Shown here: one piece after another, positions 42,015 through 57,280 of the stretch
Layout of the letters: every line of letters begins with the position of its first letter
Position numbering within the stretch: the first letter of the stretch is position 1
From: a virus
Taxonomy: Duplodnaviria; Heunggongvirae; Uroviricota; Caudoviricetes
Strand: one strand, 5' to 3'
IMG/VR virus record: IMGVR_UViG_2703718869_000013
Coordinates: 1-64,000 of that record
DNA: 64,000 bases
The notes under the pieces: generated by a model
The model's database searches: none
What the model saw: the letters and a program-made list of their open reading frames with translations, nothing else
What the model was told of the DNA's origin: nothing
Translations under genes and position numbers: made by a program

Positions 42015-43058
42015 TTAACCTATTGCTACTGGTTTTAACAAACCAGCATCAAGTAGCTTGCGAGTTAACCACTGCTGGCCTTTACCCGTTAATTGGGGCG
42101 TCAGCCGTATCTGGTAGCCATTTTCATCATCCAGCACCACTTCTTTCACCGTGAAATACCCGGCGTTAATGTACTGCTGGCGCGGTACGTTTTTGCGCGC
42201 ACCAAAAGCCATGAGAATGCCGTTCTGGCGCAACCATGAGAAAAGGGCGTTTTGCTTAAGTCCAACGACCTTTGCAAAGTTCCCGATCAGGATTCCATTA
42301 GCCGCTGATACCCGGTCGGCAAAATCGACTTTAGGGGCTGCGGCCACCAGCTGTTGTTCCAACTGCATTTTCTGTTCTGCCAACTCGGCAGCCAGGCGTA
42401 GAGCTTCTGGTAATGTTTGGGGGATCGATGGGGTAGGGGAGTTTGCCTGCTGCAATTCTTCCAGTTTGTCGATCAGCGAACGGCGGACCGCTTTTGACTC
42501 GCGCGCGGCGACTCGCAAGGCTTGTTTGTAGGTCATGGTGATGACCTCAAAAGAGCGCCCAGCCCTTGTGCCATGGGATTTTGCACTTTTTGTGTAAAAT
42601 TCACCTTCAAGTTCATCGAGTATTTTTTCGATGAATTTATTGTTTCTAACCTCTGGTTCTCCACATAACTTGCGTGCCTCATTGACCATCTTCAACAATG
42701 TTTGGCTGTCGATTGTGTCTCCGGTGTTGGGGATGACATTCACGGCTGGTGTTGGCGTAGCTGACGTAACAGGTGCTGGTTTCTCAACATTCAAATTTTT
42801 ACCGGTCACTCTATGTGCCTCCTTTCTCATTTCTGCTGCCACCGTTGCGTAACGTAGACGTCCTTGTTCAATCAAATAATCCCTGATCTCGGCTATCAGT
42901 AGCCTGTTGATCACAGCCTTATCTGTTCGGGTATAAAAACGCCTGGTTATCATGAAATAGTTGGCAATTGCGCCGGGGATCTCCCGTGTCGGCATACAGG
43001 CAGTATGCAGGGCGATTGCTTCGGCTATGTCATTACGGGTGACGAGAGGTTTTTTCAT
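42015..43058 (-). CDS. ant: antirepressor Ant (immI copy 2)
   Basis: 347 aa, paralog of 14337..15371 with near-identical C-terminal half. Confidence 0.65.
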   Translation of the reverse strand: MKKPLVTRNDIAEAIALHTACMPTREIPGAIANYFMITRRFYTRTDKAVINRLLIAEIRDYLIEQGRLRYATVAAEMRKEAHRVTGKNLNVEKPAPVTSATPTPAVNVIPNTGDTIDSQTLLKMVNEARKLCGEPEVRNNKFIEKILDELEGEFYTKSAKSHGTRAGRSFEVITMTYKQALRVAARESKAVRRSLIDKLEELQQANSPTPSIPQTLPEALRLAAELAEQKMQLEQQLVAAAPKVDFADRVSAANGILIGNFAKVVGLKQNALFSWLRQNGILMAFGARKNVPRQQYINAGYFTVKEVVLDDENGYQIRLTPQLTGKGQQWLTRKLLDAGLLKPVAIG

Positions 43059-43276
43059 AAAACCCCCTGAACGTCGGCAGAGAAGGGGAGGTTCCAGTAA
43101 CTAAGTGAATTGCGCGAGTTAGTTGAAAAACGGGCAGTAAAAATGCAGGGGCCATCAGGCAATTGAGAGCGTGCTTCGTCTTCTGTTGCTGCGATAACGA
43201 AGTGATAGTGGTGTTTTTTACAGGAATAGAAACGCCAGATGAATTCTTGGCGTGCGCAAGGATTGGCATTAACCAT
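43055..43276 (-). CDS. icd: Icd-like small protein (73 aa), copy 2
   Basis: paralog of 15368..15589. Confidence 0.45.
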   Translation of the reverse strand: MVNANPCARQEFIWRFYSCKKHHYHFVIAATEDEARSQLPDGPCIFTARFSTNSRNSLSYWNLPFSADVQGVL

Positions 43277-43490
43277 AGTTACGGCCTCACTAACAGGTTT
43301 AACAACCTGCTACCCGCTGTCAAACAGGTGGCAGGACGTGACAGGGTTGACAGACTGGCGTTAGTGAAACCAGCAGGCCGAAGCCTCCCCATCACGCCCC
43401 ACCATAATTCGGGCGTAACGCGGTTTACGGACACAAAAATACCGCAATATCGGAAATCTGCGGTTGTCCGCACTAACATTCAGGCTGTCA
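43275..43490 (-). ncRNA. c4: c4-like antisense RNA region (immI copy 2), approximate bounds
   Basis: sites 43287..43294, 43360..43366, 43471..43478 carry compensatory changes relative to copy 1. Confidence 0.5.
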
Positions 43491-43589
43491 AACCTGGTCG
43501 CAGAATTTGCTACGACGGCAGAACTATAAGCCTGAACGATTAAAAGGTCAATATGATGCGAAAAGATAGCATTCGCGACTTAAAAATAC

Positions 43590-43606
43590 AAATTTATTAG
43601 AGCATT
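43590..43606 (-). promoter_or_regulatory. C1-type operator (16/17) upstream of immI copy 2
   Basis: aaatttattagagcatt. Confidence 0.5.
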
Positions 43607-43700
43607 ATTTGTGCAATAAATGCACAAATGGATCTAATAACCTCTTTTTTTTAAAGGCGAAAATATGTACCCTAAATGGGTTATAAGGCAGGTGAGATTA

Positions 43701-43832
43701 TAATGAGAAGACTATTACTACCGTTATTATTTATGGCCGGGACTGTTAATGCAGCATCAAGCGTAAAGGAGATTTGTACCGATTATACGAAATACCTTGG
43801 GCACGTTTACGCCTTTGCGATCAATGACTATT
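43701..43832 (+). CDS. small secreted peptide (43 aa precursor with signal peptide)
   Basis: MRRLLLPLLFMAGTVNA signal-like N-terminus; not in ORF track (under 60 aa). Confidence 0.3.
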
Positions 43833-43855
43833 AATCCATGCGTAGGAGTGGATTT

Positions 43856-44173
43856 ATGCTGATTCGTTTGTTTTTAGTGCTTTCCTTTTTAACATTTAAT
43901 GTTTTTGCTGATGAAGTTGACTTTTCGAAGGTAGATTGCAATTCAGTGGAAACAAGAAAAGCTCTTATTGAAGAATATAACGAAATATTATCGTCATATG
44001 GAATAACAGTGGTTGATTCTTATAATCAAAAAACTATTCAGAAAGGAATAAATAAACTGGTTTGTTATGGGGTTTACCAATATTCAGATGGCTCTTCGGA
44101 GTATGTTATTTATAAAGCATACCCAAATAGTCTTGGTGAATTGATTAGTGAGTTTAAACCGATTAATGAGTGA
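43856..44173 (+). CDS. secreted protein (105 aa precursor)
   Basis: AGGAGTG RBS; N-terminal signal peptide MLIRLFLVLSFLTFNVFA. Confidence 0.45.
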   Translation: MLIRLFLVLSFLTFNVFADEVDFSKVDCNSVETRKALIEEYNEILSSYGITVVDSYNQKTIQKGINKLVCYGVYQYSDGSSEYVIYKAYPNSLGELISEFKPINE

Positions 44174-44180
44174 ATGGAAA

Positions 44181-44960
44181 ATGAAATTATTTAATGTAAT
44201 AACATTTTGTTGTGCTATTTTTGCTGGAAGCGCGATAGCTGATAATAAATTGCCAGATTGGCTTTCTACTTCAAAAAAAGATTATGATTTAGTAAGGGTG
44301 TTCTATTTGTCTGGATTTGCCTCGAAAGCAATGAATAATCAATTTGGTTATCATTTTCCATCTGAGTTGGTTAATGATTTTAAAGATAATGAATTTGCCG
44401 CTCAGGAAAAATGGAATACAATTTCAATTGTATATGGTGAAATAAAATCCATAAGAATGGTGAATAATGAACCAATTGTAGAGTTATTTACTCCAGGGGA
44501 AAATGCAACGCCACTAAATTATATCAAATTGAAAGTGTTGGATTCAAAACAAAACTCTCTGTTAAAACTAAAAAAAGGGGATGATATATATGCAGTGTGC
44601 TCCGGTGCTAATTTTAGGTTAGTGCCAATTCTGAGCAACTGCACTCCAGCAACTGACGTCATTGATGCTGCACTCTCTTTTTCTGGTGAATATATGTTCC
44701 CTGCTTTTGATTCTTTTTCACCTACTAAGCAAAACGTCAAATATATATTCACAAATCAAGATCCTGTTCAGATGATGAATTTTATAGGGTACCTATCCTT
44801 AGTCGATACAACGAAGGATAAGAATAAAATGGATATGGTTCGTAAGTGTACGCCTTGGAAGCCGGAATGTTCACAACAATTCGTTGATGTAATGGAAGGA
44901 TTTGATAACATCATGTATAAATATGAGAGGGAATTTAAAAATTACATAGAATTAAAATAG
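44181..44960 (+). CDS. secreted protein (259 aa precursor)
   Basis: signal peptide MKLFNVITFCCAIFAGSAIA; AT-rich. Confidence 0.45.
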   Translation: MKLFNVITFCCAIFAGSAIADNKLPDWLSTSKKDYDLVRVFYLSGFASKAMNNQFGYHFPSELVNDFKDNEFAAQEKWNTISIVYGEIKSIRMVNNEPIVELFTPGENATPLNYIKLKVLDSKQNSLLKLKKGDDIYAVCSGANFRLVPILSNCTPATDVIDAALSFSGEYMFPAFDSFSPTKQNVKYIFTNQDPVQMMNFIGYLSLVDTTKDKNKMDMVRKCTPWKPECSQQFVDVMEGFDNIMYKYEREFKNYIELK

Positions 44961-44993
44961 TATTTGAAATGATAGTCAATTTAAGTTTTAACA

Positions 44994-45024
44994 AAACGCC
45001 CATTAAAGGGCGTTTTATTGTTTT
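44994..45024 (+). terminator. intrinsic terminator
   Basis: aaacgccc-attaaa-gggcgttt then tattgtttt. Confidence 0.6.
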
Positions 45025-45183
45025 ACTCAAAACAACCTGACTCAAAACAACCTGATTGTGTGATAACCATATGATACTCCTCATTCCATCTACACTACCT
45101 ACTCTAACTTAATGATACCATATTACTCCCGGACGGCAATATTCCCACTCAATGGACAAATGACTACTCGTAGAATCGGGTAA

Positions 45184-47373: not shown

Positions 47374-50300
47374 ATGGAAAGAAAAAACGCCAATATTGAC
47401 GATGTTATAAGGACAGTTGAAACCGCCAGCGCGAAAGAGCTGGAAGAGCTTGCAGGTATTCGGGAAGCTGTTGAAGATTTGAAAGGGGAACGAGTTGCAA
47501 CTGTTGATCCTGTCTCTCGCAGTGTGTCGGCATTAAATCGCACAATCGAAAATTCCCGGCCAGACTTTGTGGCCAATGCGCCATCCGTGGACCCTATTGT
47601 TGAGGCAATGAAACGGCTTAATTTAGGGGACGTTTCTCGTGTAGTTCAGGAGGATGTTGCTCTAGAGGAACCGCAGGCCAAATCAACTACGCGAAAGGGT
47701 AAAAAACGACGCAAGAAGGCTATAACAGAAGATGTAAAGGCGCAACGGACCGAAGCAGCCGAACACGCTCGCGAAATGTTCGGTCAAAAAGGCGGTGCGC
47801 AAAAAAGCCAAAACCAACGCGATGCGCGTGGTCGTTTTATTGGAAAGTCAGGGAGTAAGGCCGCAGCGGAAGATGCCCGTGCTGAACGTGCTGAAAAGGC
47901 CAGGCGCAAAGAGGATGATGAGCGTCTAAATGCTGAATCAGGTTTATTAAAAAAACTGTCAAAAGTAGCTGAAGGCATAGGTAACCCTTCAGAGACTCGT
48001 GCCGTCGATGCGTTAGGTTATGCCGTTGCTGGTCCATTGTGGGCAGCAGGGAAGGAGCTTGGCGGGATATCAAAAGAAGTTGGTGGATCGCTTAATGGTG
48101 CCAGAAAGTCTATTGCCGATGTGATTCGTGGCAATGACGATAACAGCCGTAGAAAAGGTTTTTTTAGGCGTAAATCGCAAAATAGTGCCGATGTCGTTCA
48201 GATTAACACCCAAAAACGGACGGTTCAGGAACTTCAGGATCAGACCAGCGAAATTAAAGAGGGCAATGACAAGATTCTCAGCGCCCTTGATCAGATAGCC
48301 AAAAACACCGGGAAAAAGAAGGGCGGCTTGCTGTCCAAATTATTTAGCCTGTTAGGGAAGGGGGCCGGTGGTATTGCCTCCCTTATTTTTGGCCGTGGGG
48401 CACTAAAGAAAGTTGGCTCGATGGCACTCGGCGCTTTAGGTATTAAGGGGGTAGGGAAACTAGGGATTAAGGCGGTCGCAAAAGGCGCTTTACGTGCAAT
48501 TCCGCTAGTCGGCACGGTGGCTGGAGGTATCTATGATGCGGTAACCGGTTGGAATGATATAGAAGCGCAACGCCGAGCGTTTGGGCTTAAATCAGGACAA
48601 GATCCATCATTCCAGCAAAAAGCCGCTTATACGTTAGCTAATGTTCTTGATATGGGGGGACTGGTATCTGGTATTAGCAGCGCCATTGGTGAGGTTCTCA
48701 AATCACTTGGATTTGAGGATATCGGCAATATGTTGCAATCATTTTCGACGGAAAGTATTGCCCAGGCCATTGATAGCGGGGTTACCAACTTAGAAACATA
48801 TATTTCTAATCTTGGCGACACCATTTCTACCAAGTTCGATGATTATACAGCAAAGATTGGTGATGCTATTTCTGCATGGTTCAGTGACACCACAAAGAAT
48901 CTGAACGAAAAATTAGACGCCATCAAAAACTTCTTTACTGTCGATAACCTGAAACAGGTTTTCAGTGATGCAATTGATAGTGCAATTGATTTCATTAAGA
49001 ATCCTGGGAAATACATTAAAGAGGCTGGCAGTAATCTATGGAGTGCCGCAAAAGAGCTTTCAGGTGAGGTTGCAGATGCCGCTGTTCAGAGCACCCCTGT
49101 GGCCTGGGTTGCATCAAAGCTAGTCAACAAAGCGGATGCGAAAGAGGTTACACCTGAATTAAAAACACCAGCTAAAGAAAGTCAGGAGGACAATGCTCCT
49201 AAGACTGAATATACCCCTAAAAAGGCTAATATTGTCACTCGTGTTGTAAATGCATCCCTAGATACGGCGAAAGATAGCAATAAAACAGTTAAAGAAACTG
49301 CCAATCAGATTATCAATGCAAATGCCGTAGAAACGGGCAATCGCGCGTTGCAGAAAATTGATAATGCTATTGGTCAAAATAGCTCATCATCATCGTCGCT
49401 TAATACTACTGGCACCAGGAATGACATTCAGAAAGCTGCGGATACCTACAACAATGGCAACTTAGATGTAAAAGTCGGAAGCCTTGGCGCTGAAGGTAAG
49501 GCAAATCTCGATAAGTTGGCTCCGTATTTTGCTGAACTAGAGAATAAATATGGCCTTCCTGAAGGTACTCTTTACGCGATCGCTGCAACTGAATCTGGTG
49601 GTGATCCTAACGCAAAATCTACGCTTACAAGATCACCAAATGGAAAGCTAAGTGGTGGCGCTCTCGGAATGTTCCAGTTTACGAGCGTTGCTCGTGAGGA
49701 AACTGGATTATCCCGGGAAGATTCTTTTAATCCGGAAAAATCGGCAGAAGCTGCGGCTCTTCTCATGAGCAAGTATCTGAAGCAAGCCAATGGAGACTTA
49801 AACGAGGCCATCACTGCATATAACGCTGGGTTTGGCACTATCAATAAGTGGAAAAAAGGCACAGGTGACTTATCGAAAGAAAACCGTGAGTACGCGATCA
49901 AGGTCAATACTCATCGTGCTCGCTATTTGGGTGGTGAAATCTATACACCTGGAGCAGGAGCACAGGGTGGGGCGCAATATGGAGTGAGGGGACCACTGCC
50001 TGATAACGCCGTTATCGATCAGTCTACTGGCCTGGCGTTTACCCCTGGTGATAGCCCGTTTGAGAAAGGCGGTCTGGTAGACAAAATCGGCAATGCTGTT
50101 GGCGTTAACGATCTGGTCAACAAATTCATGAATGGCCGGGGGATGCGTCGGGAAGTCGTTCAGGGAACCCTCGAAGAACGTGCACGAGGAAGGGGAACCG
50201 CAACGGCAGCTGGCAATGTGTATGTTGATACACCTATGCCAGTTGAAGAGGCACGTCCGGTAGCAAACAACTCAAGTTACTTTGACCAACTCGGTGCACA

Positions 50301-50706
50301 AATGGGGATTGATGGGCTGTATGACAAACTCATTAATGCCCGGGGAATGCGCTCAAATAATTCTCCTCAACCAGCCTCCACGTCCCAGGTGACGACTGCC
50401 GCCAACGATTTGCAGCAACCAACCGGTCGTATGCAGATAGACGGACAGGTTATTAGTGACCTTGGCGGCTCCGGTGCCAAGCCGACAATGCAGTTGGCTG
50501 ATAATACCGTTTCACTTGATGGTGAAACGAAGCGGCTGTTTGCGCAGATGACCTCATTGCTTGCCAGGATTGAAGAGCACACTAAAGACTCGGCGAAAGG
50601 CCAGGGAACTGTCGTAAAGGTCAGCACGCCTCAACCGGGCGTTATGCGCACGGTGCCACTGTCAATTGATGATCCGTTGATGAATGACTACGCGAGAGTT
50701 GATTGA
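47374..50706 (+). CDS. sit: tape-measure-like protein with C-terminal lytic transglycosylase (SLT) domain
   Basis: 1110 aa; Gly-rich membrane-like middle; SLT-like YAIAATESGGDPNAKS...GALGMFQF. Confidence 0.75.
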   Translation: MERKNANIDDVIRTVETASAKELEELAGIREAVEDLKGERVATVDPVSRSVSALNRTIENSRPDFVANAPSVDPIVEAMKRLNLGDVSRVVQEDVALEEPQAKSTTRKGKKRRKKAITEDVKAQRTEAAEHAREMFGQKGGAQKSQNQRDARGRFIGKSGSKAAAEDARAERAEKARRKEDDERLNAESGLLKKLSKVAEGIGNPSETRAVDALGYAVAGPLWAAGKELGGISKEVGGSLNGARKSIADVIRGNDDNSRRKGFFRRKSQNSADVVQINTQKRTVQELQDQTSEIKEGNDKILSALDQIAKNTGKKKGGLLSKLFSLLGKGAGGIASLIFGRGALKKVGSMALGALGIKGVGKLGIKAVAKGALRAIPLVGTVAGGIYDAVTGWNDIEAQRRAFGLKSGQDPSFQQKAAYTLANVLDMGGLVSGISSAIGEVLKSLGFEDIGNMLQSFSTESIAQAIDSGVTNLETYISNLGDTISTKFDDYTAKIGDAISAWFSDTTKNLNEKLDAIKNFFTVDNLKQVFSDAIDSAIDFIKNPGKYIKEAGSNLWSAAKELSGEVADAAVQSTPVAWVASKLVNKADAKEVTPELKTPAKESQEDNAPKTEYTPKKANIVTRVVNASLDTAKDSNKTVKETANQIINANAVETGNRALQKIDNAIGQNSSSSSSLNTTGTRNDIQKAADTYNNGNLDVKVGSLGAEGKANLDKLAPYFAELENKYGLPEGTLYAIAATESGGDPNAKSTLTRSPNGKLSGGALGMFQFTSVAREETGLSREDSFNPEKSAEAAALLMSKYLKQANGDLNEAITAYNAGFGTINKWKKGTGDLSKENREYAIKVNTHRARYLGGEIYTPGAGAQGGAQYGVRGPLPDNAVIDQSTGLAFTPGDSPFEKGGLVDKIGNAVGVNDLVNKFMNGRGMRREVVQGTLEERARGRGTATAAGNVYVDTPMPVEEARPVANNSSYFDQLGAQMGIDGLYDKLINARGMRSNNSPQPASTSQVTTAANDLQQPTGRMQIDGQVISDLGGSGAKPTMQLADNTVSLDGETKRLFAQMTSLLARIEEHTKDSAKGQGTVVKVSTPQPGVMRTVPLSIDDPLMNDYARVD

Positions 50707-56702: not shown

Positions 56703-57280
56703 TGACATTCAGAATGAGTGAACAATCACGGACCATAAAAATTTATAATCTACTGGCTGGAACCAATGAGTTTATTGGTGAAGGTGATGCATACATTCCA
56801 CCTCATACAGGTCTGCCTGCAAACAGTACCGATATTGCCCCGCCAGATATTCCGGCTGGCTTCGTGGCCGTTTTCAACAGTGATGAGGCATCGTGGAATC
56901 TCGTTGAAGACCATCGGGGAAAAACCGTCTATGACGTGGCTTCCGGCGACGCGTTATTTATTTCTGAACTTGGCCCATTACCGGAAAATGTCACCTGGTT
57001 ATCCCCGGAAGGGGAGTTTCAGAAGTGGAACGGCACAGCCTGGGTGAAAGATGCAGAAGCAGAAAAACTGTTCCGGATCCGGAAGGCGGAAGAAACAAAA
57101 AACAGCCTGATGCAGATGGCCAGTGAGCATATTGCGCCACTTCAGGATGCCGTAGATTTGGATATTGCGACGGAGGAAGAGGCATCGTTACTGACTGCAT
57201 GGAAGACATATCGGGTATTGTTGAATCGTGTTGATACAACAGTAGCATCGGATGTTGAGTGGCCAGTCGCCCCGCAATAA
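56702..57280 (+). CDS. tail fibre assembly protein
   Basis: 192 aa, typical Tfa-like protein directly after the fibre gene. Confidence 0.7.

Follow-up and report, generated by a model that had tools for sequence, protein, structure and literature searches.

Very probable identity of a low-G+C island in a P1-like viral contig with the sim operon of phage P1, and leads on its exported products, its truncated simA and its variable cassette slot

The superimmunity (sim) function of bacteriophage P1 is traced to Devlin, Baumstark and Scott (1982) and to later papers, as cited in PMC8546580, PMC6832061, PMC2409434 and PMC10695390, and exclusion by P1 sim to Kliem and Dreiseikelmann (1989), as cited in PMC8546580 and PMC6832061; by its title, as cited in PMC2409434, the paper of Maillou and Dreiseikelmann (1990) has the sim product processed and causing superinfection exclusion. 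The function possibly keeps superinfecting phages from injecting their DNA into the cytoplasm (PMC8546580). The simABC genes constitute one of eight highly variable low-G+C regions of P1-like phage-plasmids (region 4; PMC9603915), and in a genome-wide CRISPR interference screen simA, simB and simC were all non-essential for P1 plaque formation (PMC10695390), as expected of an accessory exclusion function. The present analysis concerns a 64,000-nucleotide stretch of viral DNA (hereafter the window; IMG/VR record IMGVR_UViG_2703718869_000013, positions 1 to 64,000), in which a preliminary description, made from the sequence letters, had noticed an AT-rich island with three consecutive plus-strand genes. 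The island can be assigned with high confidence to the sim operon of a P1-like phage-plasmid, and is thereby a locus that is already known, named since 1982 and sequenced since 1990.

In megablast searches the island matches phage P1 (NC_005856, 46706-48196) with 97.5% nucleotide identity across 1491 bp among the phage genomes, the original sim region sequence (GenBank M34382) with 96.7% and two recent P1-like isolates with 99.5%. Three open reading frames (ORFs) are encoded, with the lengths in amino acids (aa) that the preliminary description had given:

43703 to 43834, plus strand: simA', 43 aa (52 aa from the P1-style upstream start at 43676)
43856 to 44173, plus strand: simB, 105 aa (111 aa from the P1-style upstream start at 43838)
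44181 to 44960, plus strand: simC, 259 aa (264 aa from the P1-style upstream start at 44166)

Homologues and PHROG profiles start at the shorter ATGs at 43703, 43856 and 44181, not at the upstream ATGs of the P1 record, and an AGGAG lies 6 nucleotides ahead of the simB ATG at 43856. Compared with the P1 proteins, SimA is identical at 49 of 52 residues (94%, three substitutions), SimB at all 111 (100%) and SimC at 255 of 264 (96.6%, nine substitutions). The P1 record labels simC as 'superimmunity' and simA and simB as 'putative superimmunity accessory function'. The gene order of the window is that of P1, namely kilA, ant1/2, icd, c4, Oc4/Op51, simA, simB, simC, LPsit, pmgC, tub, pmgB and sit, with repL also annotated in P1 on the kilA/ant/icd/c4 side. 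Orthology with sim thus goes together with the position expected of P1 sim, between the Op51/c4 promoters and LPsit-pmgC and divergent from c4-icd-ant. Overall, the P1 sim operon (M34382; NC_005856, 46786-48070) has the same genes, order, neighbours, operator and terminator as the window, which differs by the SimC and SimA substitutions and by two changes in the simC-pmgC spacer: a 15-bp tandem duplication (ACTCAAAACAACCTG twice) at 45026-45055, just past the terminator, and an extra 23-bp insertion at 45103-45125, both in common with phage vB_EcoM-673R5. This nucleotide identity and synteny support the earlier guess of exported superinfection-exclusion proteins.

Export signals of the Sec type were called with a crude heuristic of our own, which asks for a positive n-region, a hydrophobic core and small residues at positions -3 and -1. 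The cleavage sites so obtained (marked by a slash) are MRRLLLPLLFMAGTVNA/AS (VNA/A) in SimA, MLIRLFLVLSFLTFNVFA/DE (VFA/D) in SimB and MKLFNVITFCCAIFAGSAIA/DN (AIA/D) in SimC, the last with a signal peptide of 20 residues; small-x-small sites were found behind each of the three signal-peptide-like N-termini that had been noticed before. Among the 83 window ORFs of at least 100 aa the heuristic is passed by six, SimB and SimC included, and by this home-made measure SimC has the form by which the P1 sim product is recognised, a precursor with a cleavable signal sequence. The mature products would comprise 26 residues (SimA), 87 aa (SimB, acidic, with two Cys) and 239 aa (SimC, with four conserved Cys). 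Neither mature SimB nor mature SimC has a further hydrophobic segment (maximum 19-residue Kyte-Doolittle values of 0.45 and 1.09, respectively) or a transmembrane segment by hydropathy, and no lipobox Cys stands at +1 in SimA, SimB or SimC, whose mature forms are predicted to start with A, D and D, respectively. Both SimB and SimC are accordingly predicted to be soluble once processed. The sole other strong export signal among the large window ORFs is the lipoprotein-type N-terminus (MKKTLISAAIILGSLCLTG/C) of a 275-aa ORF at 18715-19542 on the minus strand.

SimB and SimC match their own PHROG families (phrog_14329, E 3e-71, and phrog_14355, E 1e-184, respectively) and form a conserved pair under purifying selection. 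Relative to P1, simB carries two synonymous and no non-synonymous changes, and the ratio of non-synonymous to synonymous rates (dN/dS) is 0.15 for simB against its counterpart in the compared locus L029 and 0.17 for simC against P1. The simB-simC pair is met again in the same slot in P1-type elements, in L029 (where SimC is 83% identical) and in the diverged P1/D6-like Salmonella contig L007 (SimB 61% and SimC 39% identical), and the simBC cassette is found in 138 PLSDB plasmids. Purifying selection together with the retention of the pair in L007 indicates functional genes. The SimC family is a small one. An exhaustive HMMER scan of 1.84 billion cluster representatives returned 13 at E <= 0.001, three of them full length, and a profile search for SimC relatives likewise found 13; a profile from a four-sequence alignment found the family in one contig, of E. 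coli, in the representative genomes of 185,579 species, and IMG/VR viral contigs hold only P1-type copies of 95-100% identity. The SimC family is essentially confined to P1-like elements. The four Cys of mature SimC are kept without exception in relatives down to 25% identity, as would suit an oxidised protein of the periplasm, and full-length relatives of SimB retain both of its Cys.

Residues 62-154 of SimC match most of the Pfam family PF12869 (tRNA_anti-like) with 19.1 bits (E 0.001), below the gathering cut-off of 23.5 bits, and two SimC relatives (P0012 and P0014) carry PF12869 outright; P0012 is a 121-aa signal-peptide protein from an opposite-strand insert in a P2-like tail cluster of Enterobacter. 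Structure prediction of the 259-aa protein had been proposed in the preliminary description. The AlphaFold2 model, built from an eight-sequence alignment, has a mean predicted local distance difference test score (pLDDT) of 52, rising to 60-73 over residues 60-140, and is poor because few relatives are available for the alignment; in this weak model the DSSP assignment gives four strands and one interstrand helix in the order expected of an OB-fold. Nearly all of the top Foldseek matches are OB-folds (the LysRS anticodon-binding domain, Stn1, SSB, MCM10 and staphylococcal SSL), none with an E-value better than 3.6e-3, and a search of the SimC profile against PDB sequences gave nothing meaningful (best E 0.19). 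The strand-helix order and the Foldseek matches agree with an OB-fold but do not prove it, and the central domain of SimC is probably of this kind. What sets SimC apart from the PF12869 family are additional helices at the N-terminus and, at the C-terminus, a helical domain, disulfide-bonded and about 100 residues long. Of the five AlphaFold2 models of SimB, a single one is confident (pLDDT 83.7); it places one helix on a four-stranded sheet, for which PDB searches gave only non-significant cystatin-like and NTF2-like matches. Neither SimB nor SimC has a meaningful NCBIfam match, and none of the three Sim proteins matches PADLOC-DB at E <= 0.01.

A 121-aa signal-peptide PF12869 OB-fold protein related to the central domain of SimC is also encoded at L030:7965-8330 and L031:8001-8366 (Enterobacter ludwigii and a plasmid-like contig), on the opposite strand in a P2-like tail cluster by Phage_tail_X and gpD-like genes, and may be another exported moron of the SimC-type fold.

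The first of the three genes appears to have a different standing. By sequence comparison, simA of the window and of P1 is what remains, at 43 aa, of the 5' part of a gene for a secreted protein of 163-215 aa. SimA shares 90% identity with residues 1-41 of a secreted protein of 215 aa from phage vB_EcoM-Ro157c2YLVW (hereafter Ro157c2) and 67% with the beginning of a 179-aa L007 protein, and it matches positions 1-41 only of the 213-position phrog_3933. Homology to full-length simA runs at the DNA level through the TAA stop at 43832-43834 (GAA in relatives) into TCCATGCG, and in tblastn of the simA region the match continues past the stop to residue 48. It ends at a joint:

43838 to 43846, plus strand: deletion joint, from simA codons 45-47 to the simB leader, at the short microhomology TCCATGCG

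The octamer TCCATGCG encodes S-M-R in the long simA genes and provides simB of P1 with its annotated 'start', and past the joint the alignments switch from full-length simA to the native simB leader of L029. simA' and simB stand in the same frame. While all probe-matched P1-type loci carry the simA TAA, in the mcr-1 plasmid pMCR_SCKP-LL83 (MF510496.1; L036:701-1171) this stop is AAA, and simA'-simB is a single 156-aa ORF with two signal-peptide-like segments in tandem. In PLSDB, a full-length SimA-family gene is present in 126 plasmids, and most of the 141 other matching plasmids have the first 48 codons only. The simplest history would be that in the P1 lineage simA lost its 3' three-quarters through a microhomology-mediated in-frame deletion, and the truncated simA of the window probably contributes little. 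Of the three genes described earlier, all are therefore present as ORFs, and the 43-aa one is to be regarded as a truncated remnant rather than a full gene.

The signals on either side of the genes are as follows, the two promoter positions being transferred from the P1 annotation:

43590 to 43606, minus strand: C1 repressor operator Op51/Oc4, which controls c4-icd-ant; 16 of 17 positions match ATTGCTCTAATAAATTT, and the P1-annotated operator position is identical
43612 to 43638, plus strand: predicted sigma-70 promoter PsimA (L001 3063-3089)
44993 to 45024, plus strand: intrinsic terminator closing the sim operon, a hairpin followed by a T-run
45158 to 45176, plus strand: late promoter LPsit (L001 4571-4589), a conserved block in the alignment
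43324 to 43409, minus strand: C4 antisense RNA (Rfam)
43477 to 43529, minus strand: a1b1 targets of the C4 RNA (Rfam)
43055 to 43276, minus strand: icd, the ORF to the left of the C4 region
42015 to 43058, minus strand: ant1, an ORF with the Pfam ANT domain

The operator lies just upstream of the predicted sim promoter, at which (43612-43638) a sigma-70 consensus scan of our own did not call a promoter. The terminator has a 9-bp stem with five G-C pairs at 44993-45016, followed by ATTGTTTT, and folds with -16.1 kcal/mol (z = -4.3; none of 200 shuffles folded as well); it sensibly insulates the sim genes beside the immunity region from the late tail (sit) operon, the conserved pmgC-tub-pmgB-sit unit that starts at LPsit. 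G+C is 33.4% over 43676-44960 (local range 30-36%) versus 48.9% upstream, 48.1% downstream and 47.2% in the whole window. High-scoring ArgR-box matches, which are predicted sites, have been listed, at P1 coordinates of about 47270 and 47906, within P1 simC and at the simA/simB junction (PMC2409434). The layout given in the preliminary description holds throughout: the three plus-strand genes span 43703-44960, the island is AT-rich against flanks of 48-49% G+C, a strong hairpin terminator stands at its end, and the genes diverge from an immI operator region whose C1 operator, C4, a1b1, icd and ant1 all lie leftward on the minus strand.

Comparison with other P1-like elements places the sim genes in a region of exchange:

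43622 to 45155 (about), no strand assigned: variable low-G+C cassette slot, bounded on the left by Op51 and the c4 promoters and on the right by LPsit

Homology to P7, SJ46 and RCS47 ends at about 43604-43621, cassette-specific DNA begins at about 43846 relative to the SimA-bearing relatives, and all compared P1-like elements realign from about 45156, two bases ahead of LPsit. The slot of P7, SJ46 and RCS47 carries an outer-membrane lipoprotein and a coiled-coil exported protein, that of Ro157c2 full-length SimA and a 158-aa secreted protein of the YfjT family, that of L029 a small membrane protein, SimB, SimC, full-length SimA and YfjT in tandem, and those of L032 to L035 SimA plus other genes. 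A signal peptide or membrane segment was found on every product of the four cassettes examined (P1-type, P7-type, Ro157c2 and L029). On these alignments and predictions the slot is a swap site for cassettes of exported or membrane proteins.

The cassette lies directly upstream of the sit operon, and full-length SimA carries a further link to sit. When full-length Ro157c2 SimA was compared with all window ORFs, the sole significant match besides simA' was to residues 907-949 of Sit (47374-50706; 49% identity, E 4.5e-7). The two share a core of 20-25 residues, GMRxxxV[QE]GTLExRARGxG, which lies about 80 residues past the Sit SLT domain (Pfam SLT, residues 718-837). Six further full-length SimA proteins were compared with Sit residues 907-949, and the motif is clear in four of them (identity with Sit at 14-17 of up to 27 positions). 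The full-length SimA-family proteins with the motif are located at:

L004, 3654 to 4301
L007, 5059 to 5598
L029, 1921 to 2568
L035, 9501 to 9992

In L034 the SimA has VEGTL and Sit has VQGTL. The motif is a lead that the slot concerns the Sit step, and not evidence on the window's own proteins.

In an abstract of 1989, adsorption to Sim+ cells was reportedly normal and the block lay before DNA entry into the cytoplasm; no description of the mechanism by which Sim blocks P1 DNA entry was found in the literature searched. The favoured reading is that Sim would block the Sit-dependent crossing of the peptidoglycan and the inner membrane, and it is preferred because of the Sit-motif lead, the slot adjoining sit and the limitation of the family to P1-like elements. 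SimC would be made as a precursor, exported and processed into a soluble mature protein with disulfide bonds and an OB-fold-like domain at its centre. SimC may then act from within the periplasm on the injection apparatus of the incoming phage, jointly with SimB, the small acidic protein that is its constant neighbour and is predicted to have a helix on a sheet. The target would most likely be a step carried out by the tape-measure/lytic-transglycosylase protein Sit once it is ejected, or the entry site in the inner membrane that Sit opens. A broader proposal, which we consider rather unlikely, is that the modules in the slot may be interchangeable, all of them periplasmic and directed at the Sit injection step; the ancestral operon would have comprised full-length SimA as a secreted Sit-motif decoy (GMRxxxVxGTLExRARG), SimB as a cystatin-like binder and the OB-fold SimC, and P1 and the window would have retained SimB-SimC after the in-frame microhomology deletion. 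If true, Sim would represent Gram-negative exclusion by targeting or mimicking the tape-measure protein.

Several observations weigh against Sit as the target. The Sit-like motif belongs to the stretch of simA that the window lacks, it is degenerate in L032 and absent in L033 (phage JK004), and cognate covariation of the SimA motif with the Sit of its own element was rejected, the identity matrix across six SimA/Sit pairs being flat; the sharing of the motif as such is not affected by this. SimB and SimC as virion-protein mimics were likewise rejected, since BLAST against all six-frame window ORFs gave self matches only. The structural reading of the two proteins depends for SimC on a poor model, a sub-threshold Pfam match and weak Foldseek matches, and for SimB on a single confident model and the non-significant cystatin/NTF2-like matches. 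The exclusion phenotype is said to have been described with multicopy plasmids and is known for P1 itself only, from whose SimC that of the window is nine residues off, and the step from these proteins to Sit is pure inference.

One alternative is action on a host component. SimC/SimB would then work by occupying or altering a host protein that faces the periplasm and is needed for P1 DNA translocation, for instance a transporter or channel of the inner membrane. The absence of detectable virion-protein mimicry in SimB and SimC is in its favour, as are the common role of OB-folds in binding ligands or other proteins (the OB-fold assignment of SimC being itself weak) and precedents in HK97 gp15, for which a host target is proposed, in DicB with ManYZ and, more generally, in PMC6832061. 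However, SimB and SimC are predicted to be soluble and have no membrane anchor, no host partner is known, and the distribution limited to P1-like elements is more readily explained by a phage-specific target than by a conserved host protein, so that a host target appears doubtful. Still less probable is a lysogenic-conversion module that alters the envelope for the benefit of the host (stress, serum or colicin tolerance), with exclusion as a side effect of over-expression. The multicopy clones with which the phenotype is reported to have been described would agree with such a module, and the slot also carries envelope cassettes without known phage function (the lipoprotein and coiled-coil protein of P7/SJ46/RCS47, the YfjT-like protein and the small membrane protein); however, several occupants of the slot share a motif with the Sit of the phage itself, the distribution is limited to P1-like elements, and in the titles cited in PMC8546580 and PMC2409434 the sole phenotype reported for sim is P1 exclusion. 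The toxin/immunity role that had been suggested alongside exclusion, or a bacteriocin-like set, is highly improbable, as it has behind it the generic picture of a mobile element that encodes small exported proteins and the likeness of the predicted SimB helix-on-sheet to inhibitor scaffolds such as cystatins (non-significant matches), and against it the lack of any catalytic or toxin domain in Pfam, NCBIfam or PADLOC, the lack of a lysis, export or immunity gene architecture, the dispensability of the genes for P1 plaques with knock-down having no effect on P1 growth, and the lack of reported toxicity of cloned sim.

Interference with the Sit step stays the favoured reading, and the simA stump with its Sit-motif parent, the simB-simC pairing and the cassette-swapping slot provide starting points for experiments. 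None of the following leads, which are possibly new, was found in the open-access papers searched: the truncation of simA at an in-frame joint, the motif that full-length SimA shares with Sit, SimC as a near-orphan with a probable OB-fold, and a slot whose cassettes encode exported proteins. Their practical weight lies in P1 transduction and in P1-like resistance plasmids, which are widespread.

Elsewhere in the window, a second, diverged immI-like module at 14337-15922 is about 81% identical to the canonical P1 immI:

15637 to 15722, minus strand: C4 antisense RNA
15790 to 15842, minus strand: a1b1 targets
14337 to 15371, minus strand: 344-aa ORF with an ANT domain
15890 to 15922: two abutting, inverted matches to the C1 operator

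As the window holds this module (about 14.3-15.9 kb), the label 'immI-2', used in the preliminary description for the operator region beside sim, is justified. The module adjoins a glycosyltransferase-like ORF and a DnaB-type helicase gene (16967-18337), and Ro157c2YLVW and JL22 likewise show two matching places; a P1-like element with two antirepressor/C4 modules might have a dual immunity specificity. The window also has a match to the Rfam RNA family IS009 at 57045-57243 on the plus strand (192 bits) and four clustered tRNA matches at 18615-20866 on the minus strand, one of them weak (41.9 bits).

Among other exclusion systems, envelope proteins of prophages and phages such as P22 SieA, T4 Imm, HK97 gp15, T5 Llp and phi80 Cor prevent DNA entry or receptor use (PMC6832061). 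SieA, Imm and gp15 are integral inner-membrane proteins, whereas mature SimB and SimC are predicted to be soluble, and T5 Llp and phi80 Cor are receptor-blocking lipoproteins, whereas SimA, SimB and SimC have no lipobox. The normal adsorption reported for Sim+ cells would, in addition, argue against receptor blocking. Ltp of Streptococcus phage TP-J34 is a prophage-encoded, extracytoplasmic blocker of DNA injection, and mutations that escape it lie in the tape-measure protein. A tape-measure target is of the kind proposed here for Sim; Ltp is, however, a lipoprotein of a Gram-positive host, and the Sim proteins show no sequence relationship to it. Spackle (Sp) of T4 is a phage-encoded periplasmic signal-peptide protein that inhibits the tail-tip lysozyme gp5 and so blocks a related superinfecting phage once it has adsorbed. 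It is expressed early in lytic infection, whereas sim lies beside the prophage immunity region, and shares no Pfam, PHROG or PADLOC family with Sim in family scans, which do not amount to a direct sequence comparison. As a working analogy, the P1 counterpart of the enzyme gp5 would be the SLT domain of Sit (residues 718-837), and interference of Sim with the Sit step would resemble the action of Spackle on gp5.

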